DNA of 64,000 bases from an uncultured Candidatus Saccharibacteria bacterium (lineage in GTDB: Bacteria > Patescibacteriota > Minisyncoccia > Phycocordibacterales > UBA6899): contig CAYXYK010000004.1 in NCBI GenBank assembly GCA_964469335.1, positions 101,362-165,361 on the forward strand, written 5' to 3'. A program made the position numbers and the translations under genes. Shown here piece by piece: positions 3,379-54,118 of the stretch. The notes beneath the pieces were generated by a model. That model did no database searches and was not told the DNA's origin. It saw nothing but the letters and a program-made list of their open reading frames with translations. Positions within the stretch are counted from its first letter, which is position 1; every line of letters begins with the position of its first letter.

Positions 3379-3930
3379 CTAATAGAGCGAGGGAAGGACG
3401 TCACGGAAGTTCGACCAGTCGCAGCGGCGCGACTTCGAGTGTGTGTTGTACGGGCGGTCGAACACGATGTGTTCCCACTCCGGTTTCCGTACACCCGTCA
3501 CCTTGGGCTTGTCGTCGATCAGGATTGCGCCAGAGACCAGTGTCTTGTCACGGGTCATCACGATCCGGTTCACCCACTCATGCCCGAGATGCTCTTCGAC
3601 CCACAAGAATTTCTCCGGCACACAGTGGTGGAACACTTTTTTGGGAGCGGTGCAGATCCGCACATCGTAGCCCAAGGAGAGCATCTCACGCATGGCGTCG
3701 AGTGCTCCGGGAATCGGTGGGAGCGAGCGGAAGAATCCTGCTTGCACACTGAGCGCATCGATTTGTGCGTGATACTCCTCCGGAAAATGCTTCTCGGTAT
3801 CGAACTTGTCTGCTTCCTCGGGAAGTAGGAAGGGGAGTTCGGGGAAATGATCGGCGATCACCTCGAGGTAGCGCTTGGTGTAATCCGCGAGCACGCCGTC
3901 TTGATCGACGAGGATGATGGGCTTTTTCAT
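3379..3930 (-). CDS. HAD-superfamily 5'(3')-deoxyribonucleotidase (NT5C-like)
   Basis: The protein has the DxDGVL HAD motif I (ILVDQDGVLAD) and NT5C-like conserved blocks (RICTAP, ILIDDKP). I chose the start MKKPI at 3930, which has AAAGGA 5 nt upstream. Confidence 0.7.
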   Translation of the reverse strand: MKKPIILVDQDGVLADYTKRYLEVIADHFPELPFLLPEEADKFDTEKHFPEEYHAQIDALSVQAGFFRSLPPIPGALDAMREMLSLGYDVRICTAPKKVFHHCVPEKFLWVEEHLGHEWVNRIVMTRDKTLVSGAILIDDKPKVTGVRKPEWEHIVFDRPYNTHSKSRRCDWSNFRDVLPSLY

Positions 3931-7663: not shown

Positions 7664-9613
7664 ATGCAACGCTTCATCAAGATCTTTTCAGTCATCATCA
7701 TGCTGTTTAGTGGGGTTCCGTTCACTGCATCAGCTGATGTGACTCCGGTGCCTATACATCTCACGATAGTAACGAATGACGCAACACTGTTCGATTCAGA
7801 CATTACGGTGGGCGAGTGTCTCGACACAGAGACGGGTACCTCGACCAGCGTGAATGCGTTCTGTGCGATCGAAGCGGTCGTAAGCTCTTCCGGTTGGACC
7901 CTCGCGACCACCTGGTACTCATTCGGTCGCTCGCTCGATGGGATAAATTCCTACACCGCCGATTTCGCGAACAACCGCTATTGGATCTACTACGTCAGCG
8001 GCGCACCCGGCATGATGTCACTCAACGCCGAGAAGCTTACGCCGGGCGAGCATCTCACGCTCGCATACGGTATCAACCCGCTTCGCATCGTCGTCGCATC
8101 CTCAAGCCCCGAGGTTGGAACATCGACCCTACTTACCGGACAGTACTTTGATCCGATCCTATTCGACTGGACGCTCGCGACCGGCACCACCTTCACCATA
8201 AATGATGAGGCGACTTCTTCGGATGCATCGGGCACACTCATGTTCATTCCGTCCACCACCACTCCCTACACCATCACGCTCACTCGTGACGGATACATTC
8301 CGAGCCCCGAAATCTCCATCACTCCATACATCGCAGATATCGCATCATCGAGCGCGGAGAGCTCAGAGCCCGAGTCGACTCCTCCATCGGTACAGGGAGG
8401 CAGTGCAACTCCCGAAGCCACTCATACCATCGACATCGAAAAGGCGGTCGCATTCCTCCGCACTGCACAGTCACCGGACGGCTCGTTCGGAGCTGCCCTC
8501 TATACCGATTGGGTCGCGATCGGGCTTTCTGGCGTTTCAGGCGCCGACGATATTCGCGCCAAGCTCGCGGCACAGCAAAAGAGTAGCACCGATCCCGGCA
8601 CACTCCCGACCGACGTCGAGCGACGCGCAATGGCACTCCTCGCTCTCGGTATTGATCCTTCCTCGGGCACATCGCGCGACTACATCAAAGAGCTCCTCAC
8701 TCACTTCGACGGATCACAGTGGGGGAGCGCGAGCGAGGTGAACGATGACATCTTCGCGCTCATCCCGCTCACCCACGTCGGCTACGGCGCGAGTGACGAG
8801 CTGGTCCAAAAGACGGTCACCTATATCGTTGCCGCACAATCCTCGTCCGGCTCATGGGGCAGTATCGACCTCACTGCTGCGGGGATGATGGCGCTTTCTC
8901 CCTACACCGCACTTCCGGGTGCCTCGGATGCGATTGTAAAAGCGAAAGCGTATCTCCATAGTGCGCAGGGTGAAGGTGGCGGCTTCGGTTCGAGTTTCGC
9001 CACCAGCTGGGTACTGCAGTCGCTTACTGGTGAAGACATTGCGATGAACTGGACGAAGAACGGAAAAAATCCGCAGGATTACCTCTGGCTCTTGCAGCAG
9101 ACGGACGGCGGCATCGAATCCACATCGCTCGATCAGTCTGCTCGCGTCTGGGCGACCGCATACGCCATCCCTGCGTCGGCCGGAAAGGATTGGCATACGC
9201 TGCTTGCTGCATTTCCGCGTTCGCACACTATCCCACTGTCATCATTCGGGAGTGCTGTCGGAGGGGATTCCGGAGAGGTCCTCGGTACGACAACACTCAT
9301 GACCGCAACAACTTCCGCACCGCTCGCGACATCAACGAGTGTGGTCGTGGTGCTGCAAGGTGCGACGAGCACACTTCTCGTCGCGACCGGCACTCCCGAT
9401 AAGGCAACTTCGACCCCTGTCGTGAAGAAACCGGTCATAGTGAAAAAGGTGACTCCAAAGAAAACCGGCACCACTTCTCCTCTGCGACTCGCGAGTTCAA
9501 CTGTGGCAACAACAAGCGTTATTGCCGTGCCGCCCGCTCGCAGCTCCTGGACCTCGGTCGTCACTAAACCGTTCATTCGCCTGTACCAAGAAGTCTCCTC
9601 GTGGTTTCATTGA
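7664..9613 (+). CDS. secreted DUF4430-like + prenyltransferase/squalene-oxidase-repeat (alpha-alpha toroid) protein
   Basis: The protein has a signal peptide and an NNRYWIYYVSGAPG block. Four or five repeats of the G..S(F/W)G ... W pattern (QSPDGSFG, QSSSGSWGS, QGEGGGFGS, QQTDGG) are typical of terpenoid-cyclase/prenyltransferase-like repeats. The C-terminus is Ser/Thr-rich. Confidence 0.6.
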   Translation: MQRFIKIFSVIIMLFSGVPFTASADVTPVPIHLTIVTNDATLFDSDITVGECLDTETGTSTSVNAFCAIEAVVSSSGWTLATTWYSFGRSLDGINSYTADFANNRYWIYYVSGAPGMMSLNAEKLTPGEHLTLAYGINPLRIVVASSSPEVGTSTLLTGQYFDPILFDWTLATGTTFTINDEATSSDASGTLMFIPSTTTPYTITLTRDGYIPSPEISITPYIADIASSSAESSEPESTPPSVQGGSATPEATHTIDIEKAVAFLRTAQSPDGSFGAALYTDWVAIGLSGVSGADDIRAKLAAQQKSSTDPGTLPTDVERRAMALLALGIDPSSGTSRDYIKELLTHFDGSQWGSASEVNDDIFALIPLTHVGYGASDELVQKTVTYIVAAQSSSGSWGSIDLTAAGMMALSPYTALPGASDAIVKAKAYLHSAQGEGGGFGSSFATSWVLQSLTGEDIAMNWTKNGKNPQDYLWLLQQTDGGIESTSLDQSARVWATAYAIPASAGKDWHTLLAAFPRSHTIPLSSFGSAVGGDSGEVLGTTTLMTATTSAPLATSTSVVVVLQGATSTLLVATGTPDKATSTPVVKKPVIVKKVTPKKTGTTSPLRLASSTVATTSVIAVPPARSSWTSVVTKPFIRLYQEVSSWFH

Positions 9614-9616
9614 TGG

Positions 9617-9853
9617 ATGGAATATCGGATAAAGGTGGTCACCAGCTCGAAAAAAGAATCCGTCACGCTGCTCCCTGACGGCCGCTATGAAGTGCGGGTG
9701 AATGCTCCGCGCAAAGAGGGGCGGGCAAATGAACGCACCTGTGAGCTGCTCGCGATGTATTTCTCTGTTTCGCCCGACGCGGTCAGTGTGATAAAAGGCC
9801 ATGCTCAGCCGGGAAAACTCATCCGGGTGAGCGATGGCAACCAAAAGTTCTGA
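9617..9853 (+). CDS. DUF167 (YggU-like) family protein
   Basis: The 78-aa protein matches the DUF167 pattern (V.V.A.P..GRAN ... L ... V ... V ... G ... K). Confidence 0.55.
   Translation: MEYRIKVVTSSKKESVTLLPDGRYEVRVNAPRKEGRANERTCELLAMYFSVSPDAVSVIKGHAQPGKLIRVSDGNQKF
9848..9853 (+). promoter_or_regulatory. -10 element TATAAT(AGA) upstream of the SIMPL gene
   Basis: The sequence gcgTATAATagataa lies 37 nt upstream of the ATG at 9890. Confidence 0.4.
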
Positions 9854-9889
9854 GGCGTATAATAGATAAATAACAACTAACTCACCACT

Positions 9890-10645
9890 ATGGAAAACAT
9901 GAAGATCGATTCGAAGGACGTTCAGCGCGGAGTCATCACCGCGGCACTGCTCGTTGGGGTCTGCCTCATCGGCGCGACGTGGATAGGAACCGCTGCATGG
10001 AAGACCGTCCGTGGGTATGACAACGCACTCTCGGTTACCGGTTCAACTAAAGAGCGCGTCACATCGGACCAGGTCAAGTGGACGATGGAAGTCACTCGGC
10101 ATTCCCTCGGTGCCGAAGGCCTCAAGGATGCGAACAAGGCGATCAAAGCAGACCTCATCTCCATCAACACATGGCTCACCGGACTTGGTATCGACGCGAA
10201 AAGTATCACCGTCACACCCGTCTACACCATGGAGAACTACGACTACAACAAGTCCTCTTCCGCTCCTCGTGACTATACACTCCGCTCGACGGTCACCGTC
10301 GCGTCATCGGATGTCGAGAAGCTCACTCAGCTCGCGAAGAACACCGACACCCTCGTGAATCAGGGGGTTTTCGTCAACACCGTCTCGCTTGAATATTATT
10401 TCAGCAAACTCGCTGACCTCCGTGTTTCACTCCTCGGCGCAGCGATCAAGGATGCACGCGCTCGTGCGGAAGAGATTGCAAAAGCGGATGGTAAGTCCGT
10501 CGGTGTGCTCAAGTCAGCGTCATCAGGTGTGGTACAAGTACTACCGGTCAATTCTGTTGATGTGTCCGACTACGGTTCTTATGACACACAGAACATCGAA
10601 AAAGAGGTCTCGGTCACTGTTCGTGCCTCGTTCGTGCTCAATTGA
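9890..10645 (+). CDS. SIMPL-domain (DUF541, YggE-like) membrane-anchored protein
   Basis: An N-terminal TM is followed by a two-lobed ~220-aa domain whose conserved pattern resembles the SIMPL family. Confidence 0.55.
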   Translation: MENMKIDSKDVQRGVITAALLVGVCLIGATWIGTAAWKTVRGYDNALSVTGSTKERVTSDQVKWTMEVTRHSLGAEGLKDANKAIKADLISINTWLTGLGIDAKSITVTPVYTMENYDYNKSSSAPRDYTLRSTVTVASSDVEKLTQLAKNTDTLVNQGVFVNTVSLEYYFSKLADLRVSLLGAAIKDARARAEEIAKADGKSVGVLKSASSGVVQVLPVNSVDVSDYGSYDTQNIEKEVSVTVRASFVLN

Positions 10646-11422: not shown

Positions 11423-11435
11423 GAGACGCGCTCAT

Positions 11436-11468
11436 GAAAAACACCACCTGCAAAGGTGGTGTTTTTCA
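11436..11468 (+). terminator. Rho-independent terminator
   Basis: The sequence is aaaaACACCACCtgcaaaGGTGGTGTttttc. Confidence 0.7.
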
Positions 11469-11515
11469 TTCCTGAGGTGGATAACGCATCTCAGTTGATT
11501 TGTTATACTGTTCCC

Positions 11516-22146: not shown

Positions 22147-23454
22147 ATGAAAAGATCCGGCCCACACCAATTCATGTTCATCCTGATCTCGCTTCTTGCG
22201 ATGGTACTTCCGTTTGGAGTCATTGCCGCAGACGAAAGCTCACTCACGATCACAGTCACACCGCCATTGTTCCAGGTTTCTCAGCCGGCCGGCACTGATT
22301 GGCGCAGTCAACTTCGACTGGTCAACAGCAACAATTATGATATTTCCATCACGGTGACTGCGCAGGATTTCCATCCGGACGGAGAGACAGGAAATGCGGT
22401 GTTTGAAGAAGGGGAGAAGGGGACCCCGACGGACTCTCGACGCATGTCCGGTTGGATCGAGGTGCCACCGGGGCTGCTCACGATTAAGCGCGGCAGTACC
22501 GCAGAGATCCCATTTACGATACACGTTCCACCGAATGCTGACCCGGGCGGACATTACGGCGGGCTTCTGGTCAGTACTCGTCCAGGCGACACTGGAGCTG
22601 GGAGTGGCGCTGGTATCTCATCAGGCATTACCTCGCTCATCTTCCTTCGTGTTCCTGGTGACGTGGTGGAAAAGGGAAGTATCAGAGATTTTTATACTGA
22701 AAACAGTGTGATCGAATCCCCTGATGCACGTTTTGTGCTGCGGTTCGAGAATGAAGGGAATGTGCACATTGTTCCACAGGGAGAGATCGTCATCACCAAT
22801 ATGTGGGGGAAGGTCCGCGGCAAGGTAAGCATCAACGAGAGTAGTACCTTCGGCAATGTACTACCGGAGTCAACCAGAAAATTCGAGTTCAACTGGAAAG
22901 AGCTCGACCCGAGCCCATTGGAAGTCGGCCGCTATAAGGCCATTGCGACCATCGTCTATGGGGTTGAGGGTCGACAAACCGTGGAGCGCACAGTCTTTTT
23001 TTGGATCGTACCGTGGAAGCCAGTCGCCTCCATCCTCGGATCACTGTTCTTCTTCATTTGGTTCATTTCCTGGTCGCTCCGACGTTATATCAAGAAGGCG
23101 CTCATGATGGAGCGTGTCCGACTTGGGATGACTGAACAGGAATTTGTCGCATATCGTGGCGGGCCGAAACAGGAAAAGCCTCAGCAGCCTACCTTGACCT
23201 TTTCCGCACTCAAACAACCACTCCGTGCAGCATCACTCAACCTTTCGCAAGACCGGATGACCTCATCACCGTCAGTATCAACACAAAAAAGAAAGAAATT
23301 GAAACCCGGAGTTGTCGCAAAGTTGCGCGCGTATCGCCCGCTGATCATCTTCGTGCTCGTACTAGCAACAGGGATCTCACTCATCAGTTGGTATTTCGTA
23401 GAGGTGTTTCAGGATGAAAGGGCCTACCACGTCGAGCAGATCCGCCCGCGTTAG
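22147..23454 (+). CDS. CscA-like (DUF916/DUF3324-like) cell-surface protein paralog
   Basis: The architecture matches the 20898 gene (FFWIVPWKP + TM + basic tail), and the start is 1 nt after the upstream stop. Confidence 0.55.
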   Translation: MKRSGPHQFMFILISLLAMVLPFGVIAADESSLTITVTPPLFQVSQPAGTDWRSQLRLVNSNNYDISITVTAQDFHPDGETGNAVFEEGEKGTPTDSRRMSGWIEVPPGLLTIKRGSTAEIPFTIHVPPNADPGGHYGGLLVSTRPGDTGAGSGAGISSGITSLIFLRVPGDVVEKGSIRDFYTENSVIESPDARFVLRFENEGNVHIVPQGEIVITNMWGKVRGKVSINESSTFGNVLPESTRKFEFNWKELDPSPLEVGRYKAIATIVYGVEGRQTVERTVFFWIVPWKPVASILGSLFFFIWFISWSLRRYIKKALMMERVRLGMTEQEFVAYRGGPKQEKPQQPTLTFSALKQPLRAASLNLSQDRMTSSPSVSTQKRKKLKPGVVAKLRAYRPLIIFVLVLATGISLISWYFVEVFQDERAYHVEQIRPR

Positions 23455-23577
23455 AACTTTCAGAAATGGGAACCTTCTACTTGCAGGACCCCCCAGTGAT
23501 TCGGTCAACGTACTATGAGTACGTCTTCCTCATCACTTTCCCCGCGCCTTGAATTTTCCTCATTTCTGAAAGTTCTC
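23453..23577 (+). repeat. structured intergenic element, copy B (terminal inverted repeat + conserved core GTCAACGTACTATGAGTACGTCTTCCTCAT)
   Basis: The 18-nt arms AGAACTTTCAGAAATGgg / CTCATTTCTGAAAGTTCT flank a core that is near-identical to 33299..33328. The inner stem gtgat/atcac covaries with atgcaat/attgcat in copy A. Confidence 0.45.
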
Positions 23578-23703
23578 TTTGTAAATATTTAGAGTTGATG
23601 CTTACTCTGTGCGCCACGAACTTTGCTCAGTTTCGCAGCTTCTATACACGTTGATGACGCCTCAAATTTCATCTATATATAGAGTGATAAAAGTAGGCGA
23701 AAC

Positions 23704-23770
23704 TGTGGATAAGTAGAGCCATATTCTTGGTTATCCACCTCTATTTGGCTCTTATCCACAGTTATCCACT
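23704..23770. promoter_or_regulatory. cluster of four DnaA-box-like 9-mers
   Basis: The boxes are TGTGGATAA (23704-12, inverted), TTATCCACC (23731-39), TTATCCACA (23752-60) and TTATCCACT (23762-70). Two are perfect matches to TTATCCACA and two differ by one base. An AT-rich tract lies upstream and a TATAAT at 23809 downstream. Confidence 0.45.
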
Positions 23771-24008: not shown

Positions 24009-25166
24009 ATGAACTATCTTAGTTCTTTCAAACAGCTTTCACGCGCGAAGCAGATTGCTGTGCTGCTCATTGTGAGCACGTTTACATGGGCTGTCGGAGT
24101 TCCAACATTTTTTGCTACCGCTTCTGCGGCGCAACTCTCGCTCGTTAGTGCGACCGCATCGTCGTCTGTCCCTGCAGCAGTCACCAACATGACACTGCGC
24201 TACACCTCGACTACTACAGTTTCGACAGGTCAGACTATCGCGATCCAGTTCAGTCCTGGCCATAATGGTGGCACTGACGAATACAGTCTCGCATCCCTCA
24301 CCGTCAACGATGTTGTCGGACAGGCGGGTGTGACGGTCATTACCGCAGCTTGTGGTGCAGTCACCGCTAACCAGGTCTCAATCTCTGGTGGTATCGCCAA
24401 CGCTGCCGGAAACCGAACCGTCACCCTTACTGCATGTGGTGCAGTCGCTGCGCAGCAGATCACCATCGGATTCATCAACAATCATCTCGTCAATCCGACC
24501 ACGACCGGTTCATACAAGATCACCATCGGCGGCACTCAGACTGACTCAGGAACCGCAATGACCGCCATCCTCAACCAGGTCACCGTCACTGCTTCAGTCG
24601 ACACAACCCTTACCTTCACTGTTTCGGGTGTCGCAGCAGGTCAAAGCATCAACAACGAGCAAGTTTCGACAACTTCGACCGCAGTTGCGATCGGATTCGG
24701 CACACTCGCTTCGGGTACCCCGGTCGTCGCCGCACAGGACCTCACCGTGGCAACAAATGCGCAGAATGGATTCATCGTTACTGTACATGAGGACCAGAAT
24801 CTCCTCTCGGCGAACGGTGCTGATATCGACCTCTTCCAAGACGGAAATGCCGTTGCGACACCGATCGCTTGGGCGACTCCGACAGCAGTGCTTGGAACAG
24901 AAGCTACATATGGCCATATGGGTATCACTAGTAACGACACTGACCTCAATGCCAACGAGTTCTTCTCAGGATCGGTCATCAAATGGGCAGGTAATTTCTA
25001 CCCGACCACCACTCGTACCATCTTCTCAAATACCGGTCCGGCTGATGGTGTAACTCAGAATATCGGTAGAGCACGTGTCGGTTATAAGATCCTCGTCTCC
25101 AACCTCCAGGAAGCCGCAACGGATTATACCAACCACCTCATCTACGTTTGCACCCCGACATTCTAA
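24009..25166 (+). CDS. secreted surface protein with WxL-like C-terminal domain (paralog of the giant-protein C-termini)
   Basis: The protein has a signal/TM, an Ala/Thr-rich beta domain, and a C-terminal ~170 aa (TLTFTVSGVAAG ... PIAW ... VIKW ... YVCTPTF) homologous to the C-terminus of the 1760-aa protein. Confidence 0.6.
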   Translation: MNYLSSFKQLSRAKQIAVLLIVSTFTWAVGVPTFFATASAAQLSLVSATASSSVPAAVTNMTLRYTSTTTVSTGQTIAIQFSPGHNGGTDEYSLASLTVNDVVGQAGVTVITAACGAVTANQVSISGGIANAAGNRTVTLTACGAVAAQQITIGFINNHLVNPTTTGSYKITIGGTQTDSGTAMTAILNQVTVTASVDTTLTFTVSGVAAGQSINNEQVSTTSTAVAIGFGTLASGTPVVAAQDLTVATNAQNGFIVTVHEDQNLLSANGADIDLFQDGNAVATPIAWATPTAVLGTEATYGHMGITSNDTDLNANEFFSGSVIKWAGNFYPTTTRTIFSNTGPADGVTQNIGRARVGYKILVSNLQEAATDYTNHLIYVCTPTF

Positions 25167-25466: not shown

Positions 25467-26525
25467 ATGCAACCTTACAAAAAATTCTTAGCCTTCACCG
25501 TACTCTTCGCAGCGCTCCTCGTTGCGCTTCCATCCGAAGTGAGTGCGCAAGGGAAAGTGAGCTTCAGGCTTTCCCCGACCACCATCGAAGACAAGGTGGA
25601 CCCGGGAGCTGACCGAGATTTCGCGCTCAATATCGAGAATCAAGGCGATGCGACCGCAACACTCTACCCGTCGGCGCAGAACATCACCGGAATCGGTCCT
25701 GACCTTCACCCGATATATTCCTCTGCAAAGGATACAGAAGGATACGCACTTGCGTCGTGGATCACCTATCAAGAGAAAGAGCTTGTTGTTCGTCCTCATG
25801 AACAAAAGACCCTCCACTTCACCGTTCATTTCCCAAAGGATGCTCATCCGGGATCGCATATGGCCGGTGTGTTTTTGAGTGACAAACCTTCAGATGCCAC
25901 CCAGAGCGGATCATCAATCGGCTTCCAGATCGGAGCGATAGTGAATTTCCAGGTCGCAGGGGAGATCATTGAGGATACTCAGATCAGAGAGTTTTACACG
26001 ACAAAGGCGGTGTACAGCAATGCGGATGTGGGATTCACCACTAAGCTTGAGAACAGGGGCAATATCCTGTCTCGCCCGCACGGCCTTATCGACATCACCA
26101 ACATGTTCGGAAAGAAAGTCGCTTCCATTCCGGTAAATGACAATGGCGGCGGTATCTTCCCGAACGGTGTGCGTGAGTTCTCGAGTGTATGGAAGTCCGA
26201 CGATATCCAGCTTGGACGCTATGATGCCGTCGTTGCGCTTGCAGTCGAAGGACAGAATGGAACTCAGACGATCTCGCGTGTACTTCAGTTCTGGATCATG
26301 CCGATGAACATCATTGGACCTATCGTCGGAGGTCTGCTTTTTCTCATCATCCTTGTCTACGTCATCATCAGGCTCTACATCAGGAGTCAGCTCGCCGGAA
26401 TTTCCCGTCCGCGTGGTGCGTCACGCCGCTCTGATCCAGGACTATCGAAGAGTGCTGCGATCGTGATAGCACTGCTTGTCGCGATCATCATCGGATTCGT
26501 TATTTTATTCTTTTACTTCGGGTAA
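25467..26525 (+). CDS. CscA-like (DUF916/DUF3324-like) cell-surface protein paralog
   Basis: The protein has a signal peptide, two beta domains, QFWIMPMNIIGP + TM and a basic tail. It aligns collinearly with the 20898, 22147 and 60879 proteins. Confidence 0.55.
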   Translation: MQPYKKFLAFTVLFAALLVALPSEVSAQGKVSFRLSPTTIEDKVDPGADRDFALNIENQGDATATLYPSAQNITGIGPDLHPIYSSAKDTEGYALASWITYQEKELVVRPHEQKTLHFTVHFPKDAHPGSHMAGVFLSDKPSDATQSGSSIGFQIGAIVNFQVAGEIIEDTQIREFYTTKAVYSNADVGFTTKLENRGNILSRPHGLIDITNMFGKKVASIPVNDNGGGIFPNGVREFSSVWKSDDIQLGRYDAVVALAVEGQNGTQTISRVLQFWIMPMNIIGPIVGGLLFLIILVYVIIRLYIRSQLAGISRPRGASRRSDPGLSKSAAIVIALLVAIIIGFVILFFYFG

Positions 26526-26527
26526 AA

Positions 26528-26648
26528 GCTGTTTCAAATTTAGCGATTATCTTCAGCAAAACAACCACCCGCGACTCACCTTACAATAAGTAAGGCTCGT
26601 CTAGCGAGTGGTTGTTTTGTTTCGCTTCTCATCTAAATTTGAAACAGG
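26528..26648 (+). repeat. long nested-hairpin element immediately 3' of stop codon
   Basis: The outer inverted repeat is GCTGTTTCAAATTTAG / CTAAATTTGAAACAGG. The middle stem is CAAAACAACCAC / GTGGTTGTTTTG. The centre is CCTTACAataaGTAAGG. Confidence 0.45.
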
Positions 26649-26706
26649 TTCGTAAGCTGGCGTCAGTAATGTGAAATAGATTTACTGTTTATGTTACGAT
26701 GAAGGC

Positions 26707-27648
26707 ATGGAAGACCGTGTCGTTCTCCGTCCAACGCGCATCACGTCGAAGCATGTAGGACATCATAATCTTACCCCGAGCGGAGAACCTCCGCGCAGGA
26801 AAAAAAGGAGAAAGAGTAAACTCCTACAAGGTGCATTCATTACTGTTGGAGCGATGGCGATGACGGTACTTATCATACATGCCAGTGACTCGTTCAAGAA
26901 CCCGAACGATCTTGTTGCGGGAGTCGGAGGAGTAGCCGCACCGTCCGCACGTTGTCCGAGCGACATGGTATTCGTTTCCAGCCCAAACGGGGGATTTTGT
27001 ATCGACAAGTATGAGAACTCACCAGGGAAGTCGTGTCCGCACAGTGATCCGAAGAATCAATTCGAAACCAATGACAACATGTCGCAACCACTCTGTGTAT
27101 CGGTCTCTGTTCCTGAGTCCGACCCATGGGTAAATATCCCCGTCACGCAGGCGATGGAGATCTGCACAAGGGGAGGTAAGCACTTGGCGAGCAACGGCGA
27201 ATGGTACCGCGCCGCACTTGGTACTCCTGATACCGTCAACACGGAAATCGGAAGCCCGAATTGCGTACTCGGTCGCATCGGCGTGAGTCATGGAGAGAAG
27301 ACGGGGAGTCATAGTGCATGCGTTTCTTCTGTTGGGGCTTTCGACATGGTCGGGAATGTCTGGGAATGGGTCGACGGAAACATTGTGAACGGTATATACG
27401 AGAAACGCGATCTTCCGCGCGAAGGGTTCATTACGGAGACAGACGTCGATGGTGTCCCAGTGTCTGTTGCAAGTTCTTCTTCCGAAGTATTTCACGGTGA
27501 TTATTTCTATATCAAGCGGGACGGGGTCAGCGGAATGCTTCGCGGCGGATTCTGGAATCTCTCGGAAAAAGCTGGGGTAGCGACGGTGAATGCGACCATC
27601 CCGACGACGTTCGTTGGTAGTGCTGTCGGCTTCCGTTGCGCCAAATAA
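26707..27648 (+). CDS. membrane-anchored FGE-sulfatase (SUMF1/EgtB/PvdO-like) domain protein
   Basis: A basic N-terminal tail and one TM precede FGE-type motifs (GEWYRAALG, DMVGNVWEWVDG, LRGGFW, VGFRCAK). Confidence 0.75.
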   Translation: MEDRVVLRPTRITSKHVGHHNLTPSGEPPRRKKRRKSKLLQGAFITVGAMAMTVLIIHASDSFKNPNDLVAGVGGVAAPSARCPSDMVFVSSPNGGFCIDKYENSPGKSCPHSDPKNQFETNDNMSQPLCVSVSVPESDPWVNIPVTQAMEICTRGGKHLASNGEWYRAALGTPDTVNTEIGSPNCVLGRIGVSHGEKTGSHSACVSSVGAFDMVGNVWEWVDGNIVNGIYEKRDLPREGFITETDVDGVPVSVASSSSEVFHGDYFYIKRDGVSGMLRGGFWNLSEKAGVATVNATIPTTFVGSAVGFRCAK

Positions 27649-27650
27649 GA

Positions 27651-27686
27651 AAGCGTAGGAATAGCGATCTATTCCTACGCTTTGTT
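27651..27686 (+). terminator. hairpin terminator
   Basis: The hairpin AAGCGTAGGAATAgcgatcTATTCCTACGCTTtgtt has a perfect 13-bp stem. Confidence 0.55.
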
Positions 27687-27750
27687 AGAGACAGCATGAA
27701 CGCCAATTCATATTGCGGAAGAGTGAAAATCGCCGTAAAATTAAGGAGAT

Positions 27751-28194
27751 ATGGCAGATACAACTCCGACAGCACCCGTATATCGATTCCGTTATGCGAC
27801 GCTGATTATTGCGATCGTGATTTTCGGGCAGTTACAGTTGCCACACGTTTCCTTTTCGCAGATGGCAAGTTCCGCATATCAGAATCTTGCGAACGTCTCC
27901 TCGATCAATGCAGCGGTTCCACCGAACGAATACAATACGCTTGCGCAGCAATTTTCTGAAAAAGACCGTGAACTCACCGCTCGAGAGCAGGAGCTGATTG
28001 CACGAGAAAAGGCGCTCGATGCGAAGTATCAGGAAGAGATCGCGAGCACCAAACGTACGACACTGCTGACCATTCTTGGTGCGACAGTCATACTGATACT
28101 TCTGATTTTGGCGAATTTCTATTTTGATATCAAGCGGGAAGAGGAACGTGAGCGGGTGCTCAGGGCCGAACGAGGCGAATCTTCTCCCCTATGA
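27751..28194 (+). CDS. hypothetical bitopic coiled-coil membrane protein
   Basis: The protein has an N-terminal TM, a Glu/Arg-rich coiled coil, a second TM and a basic/acidic tail. Its stop overlaps the next start (ATGA). Confidence 0.45.
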   Translation: MADTTPTAPVYRFRYATLIIAIVIFGQLQLPHVSFSQMASSAYQNLANVSSINAAVPPNEYNTLAQQFSEKDRELTAREQELIAREKALDAKYQEEIASTKRTTLLTILGATVILILLILANFYFDIKREEERERVLRAERGESSPL

Positions 28195-29114
28195 GTCAGC
28201 GTGTCGTACTCAAGCCCGTTCGTGTCTCTTCTCGTCAACCCGATGCTCCGAGAAGAAAGAAGAAGCACAATAATCTCTGGAAAGGGATACTTGTCGTGCT
28301 TCTCTCGACAGGTCTCACGACACTTGCGATCAAGGCGAGCGACTCGTTCGAGAATCCCTCTGCACTCATTGCTGGAGTCGCGGGTTCAAAGCAGGCACAG
28401 GTCGACACGCATTGTCCTCCAGAAATGGCATATGTCAGTACTGCGGAAGGTGGATATTGCATAGACAAATATGAAGTATCCGCAGGGGATACCTGTGCTC
28501 GTACCGATCCTGCAAATGAATTTGAAACCCAAGCGGATCTTACTGACCCGAAATGTCTCCCGGTCTCACAGGTCGGGAATCCACCATGGGTGAATGTCCC
28601 GCTTCATCACGCTATGGCGATCTGTGCGAAAGTAGGGAAACGACTTCCAACCAACAAGGAATGGTATCGATCGGCAATAGGCACACCTGACAATGTGCAA
28701 TCGGACGATCCTTCCGCGTGCGCGCTTGGAAAGACCGGGCAAACGCATTCCGAGCCGACTGGGGTGCGATCAGCATGCGTGTCGTCATTCGGAGTCTATG
28801 ACATGGTCGGCAACGTATGGGAGTGGGTCGACGGACAGGTCGAAGACGGAAAATACGGAAGCCGCTTCCTTCCGAACGACGGTTATGTCGATGAAGTTGA
28901 CGTCGATGGTGTGCCGACCAAAACCGCGACCACATCCGATCTCGCGTTCGGGGAAGACTACTTATTCGTCGATCATTCGGGGGTACGAGGGATGATCCGT
29001 GGAGGATTCTGGTCGCTCAAGGAAAAAGCCGGCATCTTTGATATCAATGCCACCATTCCCACCTCCTTTGTCGGCGATGCGGTGGGATTTCGCTGTGCAA
29101 AAGACGCAAGCTGA
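28191..29114 (+). CDS. membrane-anchored FGE-sulfatase domain protein (paralog)
   Basis: The protein has the same motifs as the 26707 gene (KEWYRSAIG, DMVGNVWEWVDG, IRGGFW, VGFRCAK). The two proteins align collinearly. Confidence 0.75.
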   Translation: MSQRVVLKPVRVSSRQPDAPRRKKKHNNLWKGILVVLLSTGLTTLAIKASDSFENPSALIAGVAGSKQAQVDTHCPPEMAYVSTAEGGYCIDKYEVSAGDTCARTDPANEFETQADLTDPKCLPVSQVGNPPWVNVPLHHAMAICAKVGKRLPTNKEWYRSAIGTPDNVQSDDPSACALGKTGQTHSEPTGVRSACVSSFGVYDMVGNVWEWVDGQVEDGKYGSRFLPNDGYVDEVDVDGVPTKTATTSDLAFGEDYLFVDHSGVRGMIRGGFWSLKEKAGIFDINATIPTSFVGDAVGFRCAKDAS

Positions 29115-29190: not shown

Positions 29191-30903
29191 ATGAGGTCTT
29201 CGCGTATGTTCACACGTATACTTTTGTTTTTCGTCGTGGCACTCACCGGGACACTCTTCCTCCCGGATGCGGTCGTTGCTGGTCCGACATATTTCACTAG
29301 TGATTTGATCACCGACTCGACACCTGCGGGCACGTCGACAACGCATACGGTGACGTTCAATCCGGGTCTCGCGATACCGACTGCTGGAAAGATCATGATC
29401 ATTCCTGAGCCGAACGGCGGAGGGGTATTCACTGTTCCTCCCGCACTCAACCTTGCTGATATCACACTTGAAGTATCCGCAGGAGGAGGACCGTTCGTCG
29501 CGCGTCCGCTTGCGCTTCTTCCTTCGGGTGTCAGCGACGGGGTGACAGTCACCACAGGTGTGAACGGTTTCATCACCTTCGACCTCGCGACCGGTGTTCC
29601 TGGGATCGCCGCGGGCGACACGGTAAAAGTCACAATAGGCGGAGCGAACTTCATCACTTCGCCAGCGGTGCAAGGTTCCTATCGTATCCGCATCCGTACG
29701 TTTGACGCTGCGAGTCTCCCACTCGATGTCGGAACCGCGATGATCGCCATCGTCGAACGGGTCACCGTCACCGGCGACATCCAGGTCATCGTTCCACTCC
29801 GCTCGAACGGTTTGCCGACGGGCCTCCTGCCTGGTGCGACAACGAATGTCCTAGTTTCCTTGAACACTGACATTCCTGCATTCTGTAAATATGCGACGAC
29901 TTCAGGAGTCGATTTCTTCGCGATGTCGTCGACGACGATATTCCTCGACGCGAATGCGGGGCTCCTCCATTACATCAATGTGCCGGTGTTCGAGAACGAT
30001 ATCTTCACATACTACCTTCGCTGCGTGAGCTCGAATGGTAATCCGAATCCCGATGACTACGTGATCACATTCGAGATCGGTGTCATACCGAACGCATCGA
30101 CAACGCCCCTCCCTCCGCCTCCGCCCCCGACTCCCTCAGGTCCGTCGGGTGGTGGCGGGGGAGGAGGGCTGTTCCTCAAGGGCGGAGATGTCACTATTTC
30201 TGGTACAGGAATTCCGGGCGGCGCACTGACCATTCTCAAGGACGGTAAGATCGCAAAGGAAGATCAGGTCTCCGTTACCGGCTCGTTCACGAACGCATTC
30301 ACTCAGCTCGACCGCGGTACGTATACGTGGGGAGTCTACGTGAAAGACCCTGACGGTAATCTCTCCTCGACCTACAATTCCACGATCTATCTCATCGGCG
30401 GTACCAACAATATCATCGCACCGGTTTACCTCTCTCCGACCATCAAGGCTGCCACTACGACGGTGCCTATCGGGGGATCGCTCCTGATTTCCGGCTACGG
30501 TATCCCGCTTACCACGGTGCAGGCGATCATGAACAAGCAGGGAGATGTGCTGAACTCGAAGATCATCACCGGGACGACCACATCGAACGGGAACGGTTCA
30601 TGGAAGATGGTGCTTTCGACCGAAGGACTAAAGAAGGGAACCTATGAAGTGAAGGCACAGTCGCTTGTGACGACCAGGGACCAGAGCGTCTTTTCCCCGA
30701 CCCTCTACATCGGCGTAGGCGAGAACCCCAATCCGAATTTCAAGAATCGCGCAGATCTCAACAAGGACGGCAAGGTCAACTTGGTCGACTTCTCTATCTT
30801 GCTTTTCAATTGGAAGACGAGTGATGCGGTCGCTGATATCAATCAGGATGGGACGGTGTCGCTGATCGACTTTTCGATCATGCTCGCCAACTGGACCGGC
30901 TAG
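29191..30903 (+). CDS. secreted multi-domain protein with C-terminal type-I-like dockerin
   Basis: The protein has a signal peptide, beta domains, a Pro-rich then Gly-rich linker (PPPPPPTPSGPSGGGGGGG) and Ig-like modules. It ends with the two-segment dockerin DLNKDGKVNLVDFSILLFNW ... DINQDGTVSLIDFSIMLANW. Confidence 0.75.
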   Translation: MRSSRMFTRILLFFVVALTGTLFLPDAVVAGPTYFTSDLITDSTPAGTSTTHTVTFNPGLAIPTAGKIMIIPEPNGGGVFTVPPALNLADITLEVSAGGGPFVARPLALLPSGVSDGVTVTTGVNGFITFDLATGVPGIAAGDTVKVTIGGANFITSPAVQGSYRIRIRTFDAASLPLDVGTAMIAIVERVTVTGDIQVIVPLRSNGLPTGLLPGATTNVLVSLNTDIPAFCKYATTSGVDFFAMSSTTIFLDANAGLLHYINVPVFENDIFTYYLRCVSSNGNPNPDDYVITFEIGVIPNASTTPLPPPPPPTPSGPSGGGGGGGLFLKGGDVTISGTGIPGGALTILKDGKIAKEDQVSVTGSFTNAFTQLDRGTYTWGVYVKDPDGNLSSTYNSTIYLIGGTNNIIAPVYLSPTIKAATTTVPIGGSLLISGYGIPLTTVQAIMNKQGDVLNSKIITGTTTSNGNGSWKMVLSTEGLKKGTYEVKAQSLVTTRDQSVFSPTLYIGVGENPNPNFKNRADLNKDGKVNLVDFSILLFNWKTSDAVADINQDGTVSLIDFSIMLANWTG

Positions 30904-31026
30904 CAGTTCGAAATTGAGCGAAATACTTCGTTGAAACGCTGTTGAGCGCCTCGCCTTACACGGAGTGAGGCTCGGCCTGCTCTACAGCGTTTCGCCTTGT
31001 ACTTCATCTCAATTTTGAACTGCTAG
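30899..31026 (+). repeat. long nested-hairpin element overlapping the stop codon
   Basis: The outer inverted repeat is GCTAGCAGTTCGAAATTGAG / CTCAATTTTGAACTGCTAG. The centre is CCTTACAcggaGTGAGG, the same core as at 26578. Confidence 0.45.
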
Positions 31027-31224
31027 ATGATAGCTCGCGTCTCGGGTGGGGGGCGCACAAATGAGTTACAAACACCACATACAAAAAATTACTCTGTGAA
31101 TCCACTGGTTCTCCACAATTGTTTTGCAACTATGTTGTGCAAGTTGATTGAAGGGACGTATAATGTAGGTAATAGTTCGTGTGCGTCATGGAGGGACGCA
31201 TTATAAATAATTTGTACTTTTATC

Positions 31225-31746: not shown

Positions 31747-33261
31747 GTGAGTCCGTGCGCGCGCGACCATAGTATGCTGAAATCCTTCACGAGAATAGAT
31801 TTGCCCAAGTTCCTTCTCGGAGCGGTTTCGATTTTTTTCATACCGACTTTTGCGCTCACACAGACAGGAGCATCACTTTCTATCTCTCCGGACAGCGGGA
31901 CGTTCGCGGCGGGGAAGACATTCACCGTCAATATCGTCATCGATTCTGCTGATGGGTTCAATACCGGCAACGCGACGCTCAACTACGACCCTGCGGTACT
32001 CTCTGCGACCGGCGTCTCGAAAGGTAGTTCCGCTTTCTCCCTCTGGGCGGTCGAGCCTTCATTCGACAACAGTAAAGGTACGGTCAGTTTCGAAGGTGGG
32101 AATACCTCACCTCTCACCGGCAAGAAGACCATCCTTTCCGTCAGCTTCAGGGGCCTCACTGAAGGAAAGACTGACCTTTCGTTCTCGGCAGGTTCCGTGC
32201 TTGCGGCGGATGGAAAGGGTACCGATATTCTCGGTGCAAAGAACGGTGCCTCTTTCACGATAGGAGCAAAAGAGCTTGCAGTTGAGCCGCCTCCCGCACC
32301 TCCTGCAGCGCCGACAGACACTGGTGGAGGAGGGGGCGTGAAGCCCGACGCTCCTATCGTTTCTTCTCCGACACACTCCGACGAGAGTCTGTACTACAAT
32401 GCGAAGAAAGCAAAGTTCACTTGGGATCTTCCTCCGGATGTCACGGTCGTGCGACTCGCGCTCGACACAAGCGGAAGTACTACTCCAACGACGAACTATG
32501 ATCCCGCGATCAGCGAAAAGGAATTCGATCAACTCACCGACGGAGTGATGTATTTTCATTTGCGATACAAGAACGACGGCGGATGGGGTCCGGTCACACA
32601 CAGGAAGATCATGGTCGATCGTACTCCGCCTCCGGCGTTCGAGGTTGAAGCGACCACGGATGCGTCATCGTCGGATGTCATTCTTAAGTTCTCTGCCACA
32701 GATACTCTTTCGGGTATAGATCATTACGAACTGACCGTAGACGGCGGGACTCCGGTGAAGGCCTCACTTGCCGAACTTCTTTCGGGAGAATACAACTTGA
32801 CCGGTCAAGAATTGGGTGACCACAAACTTAAGGTCGCAGCTTTTGATAAAGCGGGGAATGCGGGTGAAGGAGCAGCAAATTTCAAGATCACCTACGACGC
32901 AGAGGCGGCAAAAAAAGGACTCGACGAGGGAGAGGCGAAGCCCACTGATTGGCGACTGATCATCGATATCGTTCTGGTCGCGTTCATCGCATTCCTGCTC
33001 GGGTATCTGTGGTATGAGCGCGGTGCGTTCCTACATGAGAAATATGTCTCGAAACGCGAAGCGGACGAAGTGCGCGACAATCTTGGCAATATCTTTGCTG
33101 CTCTCCGTGAAGAGGTGGGAGAGCAGGTCACCTATCTTTTCGACAAGCCCAATCCCTCTGCACTCAACAGGGAAGTGCTTGGGAACATCAATGAAGCGAT
33201 TGATCTCTCGGAAGAGCTACTCTCCAAAGAAGTTGAGGACGTTCGTAAGTTACTTTCGTAA
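31747..33261 (+). CDS. membrane-anchored cohesin-domain protein (scaffoldin-like)
   Basis: A signal/TM precedes a cohesin-like domain (LSISPDSGTFAAGKTFTVNIVIDSADGFNTGNATLNYDPAVL ... FSLWAVEP ... GTVSFEGG). A Pro-rich linker, Ig/Fn-like domains, a C-terminal TM (LIIDIVLVAFIAFLLGYLWY) and a cytoplasmic acidic tail follow. Confidence 0.7.
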   Translation: MSPCARDHSMLKSFTRIDLPKFLLGAVSIFFIPTFALTQTGASLSISPDSGTFAAGKTFTVNIVIDSADGFNTGNATLNYDPAVLSATGVSKGSSAFSLWAVEPSFDNSKGTVSFEGGNTSPLTGKKTILSVSFRGLTEGKTDLSFSAGSVLAADGKGTDILGAKNGASFTIGAKELAVEPPPAPPAAPTDTGGGGGVKPDAPIVSSPTHSDESLYYNAKKAKFTWDLPPDVTVVRLALDTSGSTTPTTNYDPAISEKEFDQLTDGVMYFHLRYKNDGGWGPVTHRKIMVDRTPPPAFEVEATTDASSSDVILKFSATDTLSGIDHYELTVDGGTPVKASLAELLSGEYNLTGQELGDHKLKVAAFDKAGNAGEGAANFKITYDAEAAKKGLDEGEAKPTDWRLIIDIVLVAFIAFLLGYLWYERGAFLHEKYVSKREADEVRDNLGNIFAALREEVGEQVTYLFDKPNPSALNREVLGNINEAIDLSEELLSKEVEDVRKLLS

Positions 33262-33367
33262 CTGGCAAATTTCGTCGTTGCGGGTCCCATGCAATTCAGT
33301 CAACGTACTGTGAGTAGGTCTTCTTCATTGCATTTCCCGCGCCTCGAACTTTATCCAGTTATGAAAG
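33252..33367 (+). repeat. structured intergenic element, copy A (core GTCAACGTACTGTGAGTAGGTCTTCTTCAT)
   Basis: The flanking inverted repeat is CTTTCGTAACTGGCAAATTTCG / CGAACTTTATCCAGTTATGAAAG. The inner stems are gcggg/cccgc and atgcaat/attgcat. The core differs from copy B at only 3 of 30 positions. Confidence 0.45.
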
Positions 33368-33645
33368 AACTTGAATAAGTATTTAAAATTTTCCAATCAA
33401 AATTTGAGGGAAAAATCAATAATTTTTTGCACATTTTTTCTGAAAAAACGCTTAGATGGTAAGAATTTTTTCAAAGTGCAGTGAGATGCAAAAAAATCTG
33501 TGGACAACTCGTGTTGCTTCCACGAAAGCCCTCAGTTGAGCCATGGTTTAAGAGCGATTTTAGCCCTATTTGAAGCCGTATTTTGGCTTTTTTCTGGTAA
33601 AATTAAGCCTAGCCAATCCTTTTTGGAGGAGGGGTGTGTATTTTC

Positions 33646-36600
33646 ATGTACCGACGCCTACGAACCTATGCACGAAGAGTGATTCACGCGTTTTCAACGC
33701 GCACGAGAGTCGCCTCAACCCTACTTTTTCTGGTACTCAGCGGATGGCTTGTATCGCAGTTCGTTCTTGCCCAGAAGGAATTGAATGTCTACATCTTTCC
33801 GTCCGCAGTGACGAGTGATGGATGGAACGACGATATTCAATCGCTCAGCCAGGATCTTTCTCCTGACGCAACGCTTGCGAATTTCACTACACTCAATTCA
33901 GCATCCGTTTCGTTCGGGTCTCTGGGCGCGGCTCCTGTCGCGACCTCATCGGTTCCCGGCGTGCCCACACCATCAGAAAGCGATCTGAGTACTTCGCTTG
34001 AGAACGTACTTCCTACTACCCCGTCTGTGGTGCCTACTGCACTCCCACTCAACGGCAACGATGAGCCGATCCTCGTTCCTGCAGTGGGAGAGGCGACCAC
34101 ATCTTCGGTGATCAGTCTTCCTAATCCCTTCGTTCCTGTCACGCCGCTACCTGAGAGCATCACTGCCTCATCTGCACAATCACTAAATCTATTGCCGGAT
34201 ATTCTGACCGATTTATTTGGCGTGAAGAAAGTGCTTGCACAAGAGCATGCTTCAGCGACGCCCAATGTGAGTGTGTCCGAGACTACGACCCCTGTTGTGA
34301 TGAATCAGGAAGGAAATGCCAGTGCCACTTTGCCAACTGTACCGGAACCTTACGTCCCCACCCCGATGTCGGCTGATCCCTATTCTGTCGCTTCATGTAC
34401 GACACTGGGACTCACATGCCACCTCATGACCTTCGTCGGGTTCGGGCTCGGAGATGCCTTCTCATCCCACCCGCTCACTTCAGCGACACTTGAGCTTTCT
34501 GTTGCGGGTCGTTCAGAGCTTTCCGCCCTGCAGCATGACCGATTGTTGGTTCGTGTATTCCATGCAGGTCGTTGGGAATTCCTTGGCGAAACTGAGATCA
34601 AGGGTGAACTTTCGAATGCAAAACGCGGAGGCTACCTTTCGTATGATCTTCCTGAGATCGCTGATTGGAAAGACCTTTCGGACATGAAGGTTGTTGTTGA
34701 GTATGCGCGCGAAGGTGAAGGGAATGCATCGCTCCTCATCGACGGTGTGTGGGTGAATGCGAAATACGGTACTGATAGCATCTCCGCCGATGCGACACCT
34801 GAAGAGATCGCGCTCTCGCAGTCGAACGTACGCAGTACTTTGTTCGCAAAGGACGCAGAAGATCGAAAAGTGAGACGTGACATCCTTGATACTCCGGAAG
34901 GAAGGGAGATCGCGCTTATGCATGCGGATGAGCACGACGATGCGGACATCATCATCAAGACCGACAAAGAGATATATCGCACCCTCGGGAATACCTCTGC
35001 ATACTTCAATGTCACCAACCAAAGCGACAAGGAACAGGTCGTTCGGCTGCAGTTCCATTTTCCTGAGGGTGGCGGCGGAGTTGCATCATTGTCCCGCCTT
35101 TCTCGCTCAGTCCCGTACAAAGTAAGTAATCTGAAATACGATTCCGTCGGTTACTTCTGTGCAAGCGGATGGCAGAGCGCCTCGTCGACCGACACGAAAG
35201 GATTTACTTGTGTTGATATGAATGAGACCCGATCTTGTGATGCGCTCAACGACGATAAGACGAACTGTATCGTCAGTGGTGCGCGAGTCGGGCTCACAGA
35301 AGACATCGAATATCGTGACGGATGGGTTCCTAGCGCTCTTCTACAGGGCTCGTTCCGTGATGATGCGGGCATCTTCGCCAAGGCGATCGACCTCATTCTC
35401 GGTAAGTTGCCTTCGGGAGCGATCCCTCCTTCTGAACAGCCGGTCTCGTACATCGAGAATTCGGTACTTCTTCTCCCGGGGCAGACTGCATACCTTCGCG
35501 CAGATCTTGCGCTCCCACTCAATGGACGCGGGGATTTCTATATCGAGGGAGCAACGGAGAGCGGTGCGTACGGTCTCGTTCATGCCGCATGGGATGGTTC
35601 ATGGAACTACCGTGTGCCCGTTGATATCGATAACGAGAAAGTCGAGACTGAAGACTCGTATGCCGTCCCGGTGTCGCTCGACTCGCTTCCGCTCGCATTC
35701 TGGGACAGGGTCAACGCGGACGGCTCGGATGTCCGTTTCGTTGACGAGACCGGGACGCAGGAACTCCCGTACTGGCTCTCTTCGTGGAAATACGAAGACC
35801 GAAAAGCATTCGCCTGGGTGCGAATCCCGAAGACGAGCAATTCGACCACTACGCGCATCTATGTGTACTACGGTGATCATAGTGCCGCTTCCCGCTCGTC
35901 GCTCACTGCTCCGTTCCGTACCGATAGGCTCACTTCGCGCGCGGTGATCGCAGGCTCGAGTCAGCATGATATGACACTACTCGCAATCGCGCTCGATGAA
36001 GATACGCACATCCAAGCGGGGGAGCATGAGCCAGTCACTCTCAAGAAGGGAGAGACTGCACTCTTTGGGTCGCTCGCACCGGGCGATGTAGTCCAAGCTG
36101 ATGGGCCGATATCTCTTTCGCTTGAGTCGAGCGGTTCAGGTGCGACGGTCGTTCCATACGGATATACTGGCGGCAATTTCGTTATTCCGGGAATCGGCGG
36201 TGAGCGCATCCTTTCGATGACTGCCGTCGAAGATGGTGAGGTGCACACGGAGCTCAAGCGAGGGAGTGCTACTTCGACAACTCTCGATCCGATTGCAGGG
36301 ACGATCGTTTCGGATACGGTGGATCTCGACAGTTCGATCCGTGTCGATGCGGCAAGTGATGTCATGGCACTCCTTTCTGCGGGGGATGGCACGCGCCTTA
36401 CCCCGCTTTATCCGTCGACCGATGAACCGCTTTATGGTTTCATGCTCGGAAAGACAGTGGTTGGATTCGGAACAGACGGATCGACGATGAAGGCGGTGTG
36501 TGCCGGAGGTGCGGTCAAATCCGCCGACGGACGTAGAGACGGCATGATGACCGTCCTCGATCATTGTCAAAGTTCCGTTCTTCCTTCGCTCGCCGACGCA

Positions 36601-52308: not shown

Positions 52309-52398
52309 GCGAATGACAGACATGACCATCTGCGAACCCTTGCGCCTGTGTACGAAAGGGGAAGCGATATGACAAATATCATATATAATAGAGTAAGC

Positions 52399-53889: not shown

Positions 53890-54001
53890 ATCAGTTTTGG
53901 CGACCTGCTCGTGCTTCCTCCAGCAAGTCGAGGCACCGTAGATGACTACGGCTTCTCGACATTGCCTCAGTCCAGCACGTCGCATCTCATCCAAAACTGC
54001 T
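53890..54001 (+). repeat. long nested-hairpin element immediately 3' of stop codon
   Basis: The outer inverted repeat is ATCAGTTTTGG / CCAAAACTGCT. The middle stem is GTCGAG/CTCGAC. The centre is CCGTAGatgaCTACGG. Confidence 0.4.
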
Positions 54002-54118
54002 ATATTTCTACATATTGACATTTAATATATATTATGAATAATAATTTACGCATTCATTAATCAGTAGACATGTAGCTTGAAATTCCTCAAGTTCATCACT
54101 CTGCTGATAGCAGAGGAG

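Follow-up and report, generated by a model that had tools for sequence, protein, structure and literature searches.

What kind of element is a hairpin of some 125 nt that recurs at the stop codons of unrelated genes, and on which strand, and as RNA or as DNA, is its structure preserved? The question is raised by a 64,000-nt stretch of contig CAYXYK010000004.1 (hereafter the window), an ordinary chromosomal region of an uncultured bacterium of the Candidate Phyla Radiation (CPR, or Patescibacteria) whose nearest relatives are Parcubacteria, Lloydbacteria and Taylorbacteria. An earlier note on this DNA had pointed to two look-alike elements of about 120 nt and had argued that their similarity exceeds chance and that their stems are kept by compensatory change. 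Both elements, c1 and c2 (Table 1), were located; they are ~80% identical over ~125 nt, and each forms a single long imperfect hairpin (about -47 kcal/mol, z about -7). They carry the same terminal arms, ACTTTC..AA.TGG, and a 30-nt core, GTCAACGTACT(R)TGAGTA(S)GTCTTC(Y)TCAT, which occurs exactly twice in the window and in none of 100 dinucleotide-preserving shuffles. As described, the inner stem of c2 (ATGCAAT/ATTGCAT) lies in register with that of c1 (GTGAT/ATCAC), and the differences between the two are compensatory. The two copies are members of a new, multi-subfamily family of ~125-nt hairpin repeats in Parcubacteria.

The extent of the family was established by scanning one genome per species and Joint Genome Institute (JGI) metagenomes with the core pattern and by building a covariance model from nine copies, with which the window was rescanned with filters off. 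By model and hairpin scan, the window holds not two but at least five copies, namely c1, c2 and three more diverged ones (w3 to w5). A separate inverted-repeat scan returned c1 and the three additional copies as hairpins of the same size, with outer arms of 16-19 nt lying 89-92 nt apart and all z between -7 and -9. About 17 further copies were found outside the window in Patescibacteria/Parcubacteria contigs (L001, L002, L004, L009, L010, L012, L017, L018, L021 and L026, where L-numbers from L001 to L026 denote contigs of other genomes or metagenomes). With the core pattern alone, homologues were recognized in metagenome-assembled genomes of Patescibacteria, namely in L004 (identical to L007 and L008, Candidatus Uhrbacteria), L002, L001 (identical to L005), L009 (identical to L014), L010 and L012; the covariance model then added one further, more diverged copy each to L001 and L009. 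L002 has two copies, one on either side of an S41 peptidase gene, and loci reached through HSP20 and LexA homologues yielded copies in L017, L018, L021 (four) and L026 (three). Several candidates were dropped: L003 (Algicola), L006, L011/L013 and L015 match only a 22-26 nt seed without a hairpin and count as chance hits; a model match after corA (L002:5153-5234) does not fold (z +0.5); and an inverted repeat at 3579-3694 of the window lies within coding sequence and has another shape.

The copies share one architecture over 120-135 nt, in which a variable, A/T-rich outer stem of 16-19 bp leads through a junction into a variable inner stem and then to an apical stem-loop that is subfamily-specific and has 2x2 purine loops on its flanks. 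On the bottom strand, that is, the strand antisense to the abutting gene, the junction carries motifs conserved across subfamilies, GAUG beside the outer stem and then RAGGCG; 14 of 21 copies have GAUG (GATG as DNA), whereas shuffling gives 2.4. At least three subfamilies are distinguished by their bottom-strand apices: GACGUACU..AGUACGUUGAC in subfamily A, GAGCCnnAC..GUnnGGUGAG in subfamily B, and GGACAUAC..GUAUGUUC in subfamily C. L001, L009 and the window genome each contain both subfamily A and subfamily B. One subfamily A copy, in L010 (~14-30), carries an extra hairpin of ~16 nt (TAAGGTGAAACACTTA) inside its GCGGG arm. Small antisense open reading frames (ORFs) starting at GAUG were considered and set aside, as their lengths and frames differ among copies.

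Rfam 15 gave no match anywhere in the window at gathering thresholds, and relaxing the search to E values up to 10 on 23400-23650 returned only two sub-threshold matches to sR17, a C/D-box small RNA (sRNA), of which the stronger scored 15.4 bits where 36 are required. The element had no match among viral contigs, phage records or plasmid records, and in the literature and databases searched no interspersed palindromic repeat family is described for Parcubacteria or Patescibacteria.

Whether the hairpin itself is under selection was examined in a model-guided alignment of 14 homologues, which is fitted to the model and thereby favors structure. Standard pairs fill 86.6% of the cells; shuffling the columns lowers this to 68.6%, and displacing the partners by one to three columns lowers it to 25-45%. 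In 20 of the 27 pairs both partners have changed. None of 500 shuffles (0.161) attains the covariation score of 0.506, which lies far above the slid controls (0.07-0.10). These margins are large, so the structure is supported although the alignment was fitted to the model. The outer stems, which lie outside the covariation model, are paired in every copy despite unrelated sequences. The stems are thus kept by compensatory change and the hairpin is under selection; compensatory changes in excess of both shuffled and slid controls are the generic mark of a structured RNA or single-stranded nucleic acid. The earlier note had named a lack of further copies together with a lack of covariation support as one outcome that would speak against it, and both further copies and covariation above controls were found. 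Its covariation argument is right.

The strand on which the fold is preserved is not the one that had been read. The earlier note read the gene-sense strand, but the reverse complement folds better in 16 of 19 copies and in all three L026 copies, 19 of 22 in total, with summed minimum free energies over the 19 copies of -965 kcal/mol for sense and -1183 kcal/mol for antisense; DNA folding parameters give the same strand direction. Transition-type mismatches in the palindrome appear as G.T on the antisense strand and as A.C on the sense strand. G.T appositions on the antisense strand prevail both in the outer stems (32 vs 10, binomial p 0.0009), which are non-homologous between copies, and in the inner part (41 vs 18), and the G.U pair closing the apical stem is invariant (14/14 sequences). 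Mutation bias was rejected as the source of the asymmetry on third-codon composition: C3 exceeds G3 with the coding strand and T3 exceeds A3 on the + strand, with no keto/amino skew, and such a bias therefore does not predict the G.T excess. The pyrimidine richness of the sense strand at unpaired positions matches the neutral-site composition of + strand genes, and the purine-rich loops alone were accordingly given no weight. The fold that is preserved is that of the bottom strand.

This result bears directly on the explanation closest to the original proposal, a cis-acting structured RNA in the 3' untranslated region (3'UTR) of the sense mRNA that terminates transcription or blocks exonucleases and spreads because it is useful. 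Every copy is co-oriented and co-transcribable with the upstream gene, and its sense RNA retains a hairpin of about -47 kcal/mol with z about -7. Selection on a sense RNA should nevertheless leave the opposite mismatch pattern to that observed, in which appositions that are A.C on sense and G.U on antisense outnumber the converse by 73 to 28, outer stems included.

Gene context is equally constrained. In 16 of the 18 evaluable copies the start of the element falls in the interval from 14 nt ahead of a stop codon to 1 nt past it, and for the five window copies random placement in intergenic space would give such adjacency with a probability of ~1e-6, as estimated from gap lengths. Stop-codon overlap is typical for 3'-end hairpins of compact genomes, which counts in favor of a sense 3'UTR element; against it stands L002a, which lies in a divergent promoter region and not after a gene and is an exception, and in L004 the nearest credible stop codon is uncertain. 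The register of the stop codon within the 5' arm varies among copies, and the KLLS* C-terminus enclosed by c2 is native, since relatives without the element keep KLLS* with other synonymous codons. Orientation relative to the abutting gene is identical in all copies. At the convergent dinB and ZIP genes of L026 the element abuts ZIP, the gene that matches the orientation rule, and around lexA homologues, where genes lie on both strands, all three new copies follow the locally dominant gene strand. The adjoining genes are unrelated and encode, among others, cohesin, dockerin, WxL-interacting-like, fn3, rplU, mreB, ndk, S41 peptidase, HMA, VTT, GH18, RRM and ZIP transporter products; the VTT gene of L012 was rejected as an ortholog of the minus-strand VTT gene of the window (26% identity). 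The earlier placement at stop codons of surface-protein genes thus stands for the stop codons, while of the two genes preceding c1 and c2 only the cohesin-domain ORF before c2 has a recognizable surface-protein domain, and the family elsewhere follows housekeeping genes.

A hairpin directly after a stop codon resembles an intrinsic terminator, and a relative (L018) has a canonical terminator at the orthologous site, which again speaks for a sense 3'UTR function. Compared with intrinsic terminators, however, the element has a stem five times longer, an A/T-rich base, no U-tract and the wrong better-folding strand. In a listing of terminator-like hairpins the outer hairpins of the elements are absent and just one sub-hairpin inside w3 appears, and the downstream flanks have no T-runs. 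Furthermore, L001a is situated between the rplU stop codon and a separate canonical bidirectional terminator, so that the terminator there is not this copy, and antisense transcripts are unlikely to run into it.

That same terminator matters for a second RNA-based explanation, in which transcription of the bottom strand across the gene 3' end would yield an antisense small RNA or RNA structure that acts on the stop region of the mRNA or binds a protein through its conserved apex and G.A loops. The bottom strand does carry the G.U pairs, the invariant G.U, tandem G.A / A.A 2x2 loops, GAUG and RAGGCG, as this explanation would have it. Upstream on that strand, though, no conserved promoter-like motif was seen, no terminator follows on it, and in L001 the bidirectional terminator lies directly upstream; moreover, the G.T preference and G.A loops stabilize single-stranded DNA equally. 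We regard an antisense RNA as improbable, and the independent sRNA offered in the earlier note is not supported, since no conserved antisense promoter was seen and one copy is fenced off by a terminator. TIGR/Tas or box C/D-like RNA was rejected on architecture, as was a K-turn. TIGR-Tas systems array hairpin units in tandem, bearing box C/D motifs and a pair of 8-12 nt spacers, beside a Tas (Nop-domain) gene (PMC12045711); the copies here are dispersed kilobases apart, lack large spacer loops and have no Tas-like neighbor. A K-turn is excluded by purine loops that are symmetric 2x2 without a 3-nt bulge.

Comparison of orthologous sites reveals rapid gain, loss and replacement of elements between relatives. 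Gene order around hsp20 is kept in L016-L025, but the elements are not. Where the window has a subfamily A copy (c2) after the cohesin gene and a subfamily B copy (w4) after the dockerin gene, L016, with 94% HSP20 identity, has an unrelated hairpin of ~113 nt after the former and nothing alignable after the latter. L017 has nothing after cohesin and, after dockerin, an A-like copy followed by 3'-half remnants of an L018-type hairpin, held in a ~165-nt tandem duplication (~9600-9930) downstream of the intact element. L018-L020 carry a canonical terminator (CCGGAGGCAATCTCCGG + T8) after cohesin and a B' copy after dockerin, and L021 carries subfamily C and an A-like copy at the two sites. After the cohesin gene, L023 has another hairpin and then a 3'-half remnant of subfamily C, while in L025 no hairpin was flagged there by scan or model and the dockerin gene is followed directly by the next gene. 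Two copies stand in tandem in L021 (2496-2626 and 2683-2815), and L009 likewise has copies paired in tandem. Where an older and a newer generation can be told apart, it is the intact copy that adjoins the stop codon, with the remnant downstream of it, which suggests that new copies arrive on the stop-codon side. Such fast subfamily replacement is unexpected for a gene-specific regulator. Unrelated neighbors, turnover at the same site and a wobble/mismatch asymmetry that favors the antisense fold together speak against the structured 3'UTR of surface-protein genes as first proposed, and the broader sense 3'UTR function appears doubtful to us.

Unrelated neighbors, coexisting subfamilies, orthologous-site turnover, tandem copies and 3'-half remnants indicate that the family behaves like non-autonomous mobile DNA, and three known kinds of repeat invite comparison. 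REPINs and repetitive extragenic palindromic (REP) sequences, which are mobilized by REP-associated tyrosine transposases (RAYTs, IS200/IS605-type Y1 HUH enzymes), are likewise hairpins of ~100 nt that are non-coding, extragenic and dispersed and mostly follow genes, with subfamilies per genome, compensatory pairing and a folding thought relevant in single-stranded DNA (PMC3337134, PMC3733652, PMC8266576). REPs differ in having a conserved GTAG (or CGTC) tag and stem base with a variable center, whereas the elements described here have a variable base, a conserved apex and no GTAG tag: outer arms differ in every copy without a common tag, and CGTC occurs only on the 3' side of the subfamily A apical stem. 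Unlike REPs, they also show tight stop-codon adjacency and a single orientation, their copy density is modest, and no RAYT or Y1 transposase gene was found in the window or in the fetched flanks. Enterobacterial repetitive intergenic consensus (ERIC) sequences, also called intergenic repeat units (IRU), of Enterobacteria and Vibrio are ~125-nt imperfect palindromes shared across species, found in transcribed intergenic or 3' regions and variable at orthologous sites (reviewed in PMC2229807 and PMC3184786). ERIC sequences, however, belong to another phylum, have no sequence similarity to the elements, lie in either orientation to transcription and keep no fixed relation to stop codons. Bacterial MITEs (transposable elements of the miniature inverted-repeat class), such as Correia/NEMIS, RUP and the Rickettsia palindromic elements, are small non-autonomous palindromes that may overlap gene ends, supply or enclose stop codons and vary in presence between strains (PMC2229807, PMC3184786). 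Copies of a MITE share conserved terminal inverted repeats and come with target-site duplications, and the elements have neither; their arms covary instead of being conserved, and no flanking direct repeat was seen.

With moderate confidence, we read the elements as a dispersed family of imperfect-palindrome repeats of Parcubacteria-type CPR bacteria, of REPIN/ERIC/MITE-like character and mobile-DNA-like behavior, in which a single-stranded DNA hairpin is selected. We infer that they are non-autonomous mobile DNA, nearest in kind to REPINs, ERIC sequences and MITEs, with a strand logic like that of integron attC sites. The selected form would be a single-stranded DNA hairpin used in copying or moving the element, by analogy with REP/REPIN-RAYT systems, IS200/IS605 ends and the bottom strands of attC sites, and propagation would probably run through the folded bottom strand. 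The hairpin at the mRNA 3' end (about -47 kcal/mol) would then be a by-product, which may or may not be co-opted as a 3'-end stabilizer or terminator. Among the possibilities listed in the earlier note, a cruciform or protein-binding DNA element comes closer to what the evidence favors, in the sense of a DNA-level hairpin or cruciform.

The analogy with attC sites can be taken literally, making the elements integron-type attC sites, or an attC cluster without its integrase, with the preceding genes as cassettes and the folded bottom strand as the recombination substrate. Sites of that type range from 57 to 141 nt, and the elements agree with them in size and imperfect palindromic form, in stop-codon position, in fixed orientation to the ORF, in bottom-strand folding and in conserving structure more than sequence. 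They differ in that the R/L boxes are missing and that conservation lies at the apex, which is variable in attC sites, rather than at the base. Inspection by eye of the five window stem bases for RYYYAAC...GTTRRRY found AAC...GTT only in c1, without the YYY/RRR context; Pfam detected no integrase on the window ORFs scanned; and the neighbors, among them rplU, mreB and ndk, are syntenic chromosomal genes and not cassettes. Literal attC sites are hence highly improbable. A tentative thought, which we rate as possible at best, is that the elements are substrates of an unrecognized CPR system of single-stranded DNA recombination or transposition or, as a variant, orientation-specific single-strand hairpins that serve the host on its chromosome, comparable to plasmid single-strand origins. 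In the former case, a bottom-strand-active hairpin would be inserted exactly at the stop codon in fixed orientation and older copies would be pushed downstream, making the element a portable gene-end module.

Several observations weigh against reading the family as mobile DNA. No transposase, recombinase or reverse transcriptase was detected in the window (Pfam, 39 ORFs) or beside any copy, and neither a target-site duplication nor a conserved flank motif surrounds the copies. Conservation is lowest at the ends and highest at the apex, opposite to what MITEs and REPINs show, and the near-identical apex across species could reflect a host factor that binds each copy, that is, a cellular function. 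Movement is seen only as differences between genomes. Moreover, with a single orientation in all copies, coupling to transcription is inseparable from coupling to the replication strand in the present data; GC3 skew tracks the coding strand, AT3 skew alone stays constant along one strand, and the direction of replication is thereby left ambiguous.

Table 1. Copies of the hairpin family in the window and features in their neighborhood (window coordinates; strand is the better-folding strand; energies are given as antisense / sense).
Feature	Coordinates	Strand	Form and model score	Energy (kcal/mol)	Detected by	Context
c1, subfamily A	23453-23576	-	124-nt imperfect palindrome; 76.7 bits	-59.6 / -47.6	inverted-repeat scan	TAG 23452-23454 of ORF 22147-23454 (+ strand; 435 aa, no Pfam match) shares 2 nt with outer stem
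c1 outer arms	23453-23468 / 23561-23576					
c1 inner stem	23496-23500 / 23532-23536		GTGAT / ATCAC			
c1 apical core	23504-23533					
c2, subfamily A	33248-33372	-	125-nt hairpin; 92.7 bits			5' arm encloses last four codons (KLLS) and TAA 33259-33261 of cohesin-domain ORF 31747-33261
c2 core	33299-33328					
w3, subfamily B (apex GCCTTAC..GTAAGG)	26526-26650	-	125-nt hairpin; 26 bits, E 1e-4	-61.2 / -54.8	inverted-repeat scan; model match 26548-26629	begins immediately 3' of TAA 26523-26525 of ORF 25467-26525 (WxL-interacting/peptidoglycan-binding-like)
w4, subfamily B	30900-31026	-	127-nt hairpin; 22.6 bits, E 1e-3	-71.6 / -71.3	inverted-repeat scan; model match 30923-31004	outer arm includes TAG 30901-30903 of dockerin-domain ORF 29191-30903
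w5, subfamily B-like (apex GCCGTAG..CTACGG)	53883-54008	-	126-nt hairpin; 17.5 bits, E 0.03-0.07	-66.2 / -53.2	inverted-repeat scan; model match 53905-53980	5' arm encloses TAA 53887-53889 of ORF 52348-53889 (fn3 / purple acid phosphatase N-terminal domain)
DnaA-box-like 9-mers	23701-23770		TGTGGATAA, TTATCCACC, TTATCCACA, TTATCCACT			ORF 24009-25166 (385 aa, no Pfam match) begins ~240 nt downstream
Conserved spacer motif	33499-33508		TGTGGACAAC			~130 nt upstream of giant ORF 33634-52308 (6224 aa)
Inverted repeat before hsp20	~31176-31196		TGCGTC-ATGGAGG-GACGCA			just downstream of TATAAT box, upstream of hsp20 (start 31225)
FGE-sulfatase-domain paralogs	26707-27648; 28191-29114					shared segments 27316-27425 / 28773-28882
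Further dockerin-domain ORF	61922-63124					
Perfect terminator-type hairpins	2198-2234; 11434-11469; 27646-27687					other gene ends

Some features near the elements deserve mention in their own right. Downstream of c1, four DnaA-box-like 9-mers fall within 70 nt; cumulative GC skew does not switch there, which makes a putative DnaA-regulated promoter likelier than an oriC. In the spacer before the 6224-aa ORF, TGTGGACAAC is kept in all syntenic relatives (L016, L017, L018), the rest of the spacer not being alignable, and it may be a regulator binding site. The inverted repeat upstream of hsp20 is kept in L016 and may, judging from its position, be a heat-shock operator or a 5'UTR hairpin. 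The two FGE-sulfatase-domain paralogs share 110 nt at 70% identity; a template/variable pair of a diversity-generating retroelement was rejected for them, as they do not differ specifically at adenines and a reverse transcriptase gene is absent nearby. The cohesin-domain protein and the two dockerin-domain proteins adjoin giant ORFs (1760 aa and 6224 aa), an arrangement that resembles a cell-surface system of the cohesin-dockerin type in a CPR bacterium and is syntenic across relatives. Conventional terminators are also used by this genome, as the short, ordinary perfect hairpins at other gene ends show.

CPR bacteria have very small genomes, in which repeats and mobile DNA are usually said to be scarce. 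A family that is sited at stop codons in one orientation and keeps its fold on the non-coding strand offers a way into the construction and remodeling of gene ends in these organisms, and it is a possible pointer to an unknown single-strand-specific enzyme. The elements are, at the same time, a source of false "structured RNA" calls, and they are useful for marking strain-level variation in Parcubacteria metagenomes.

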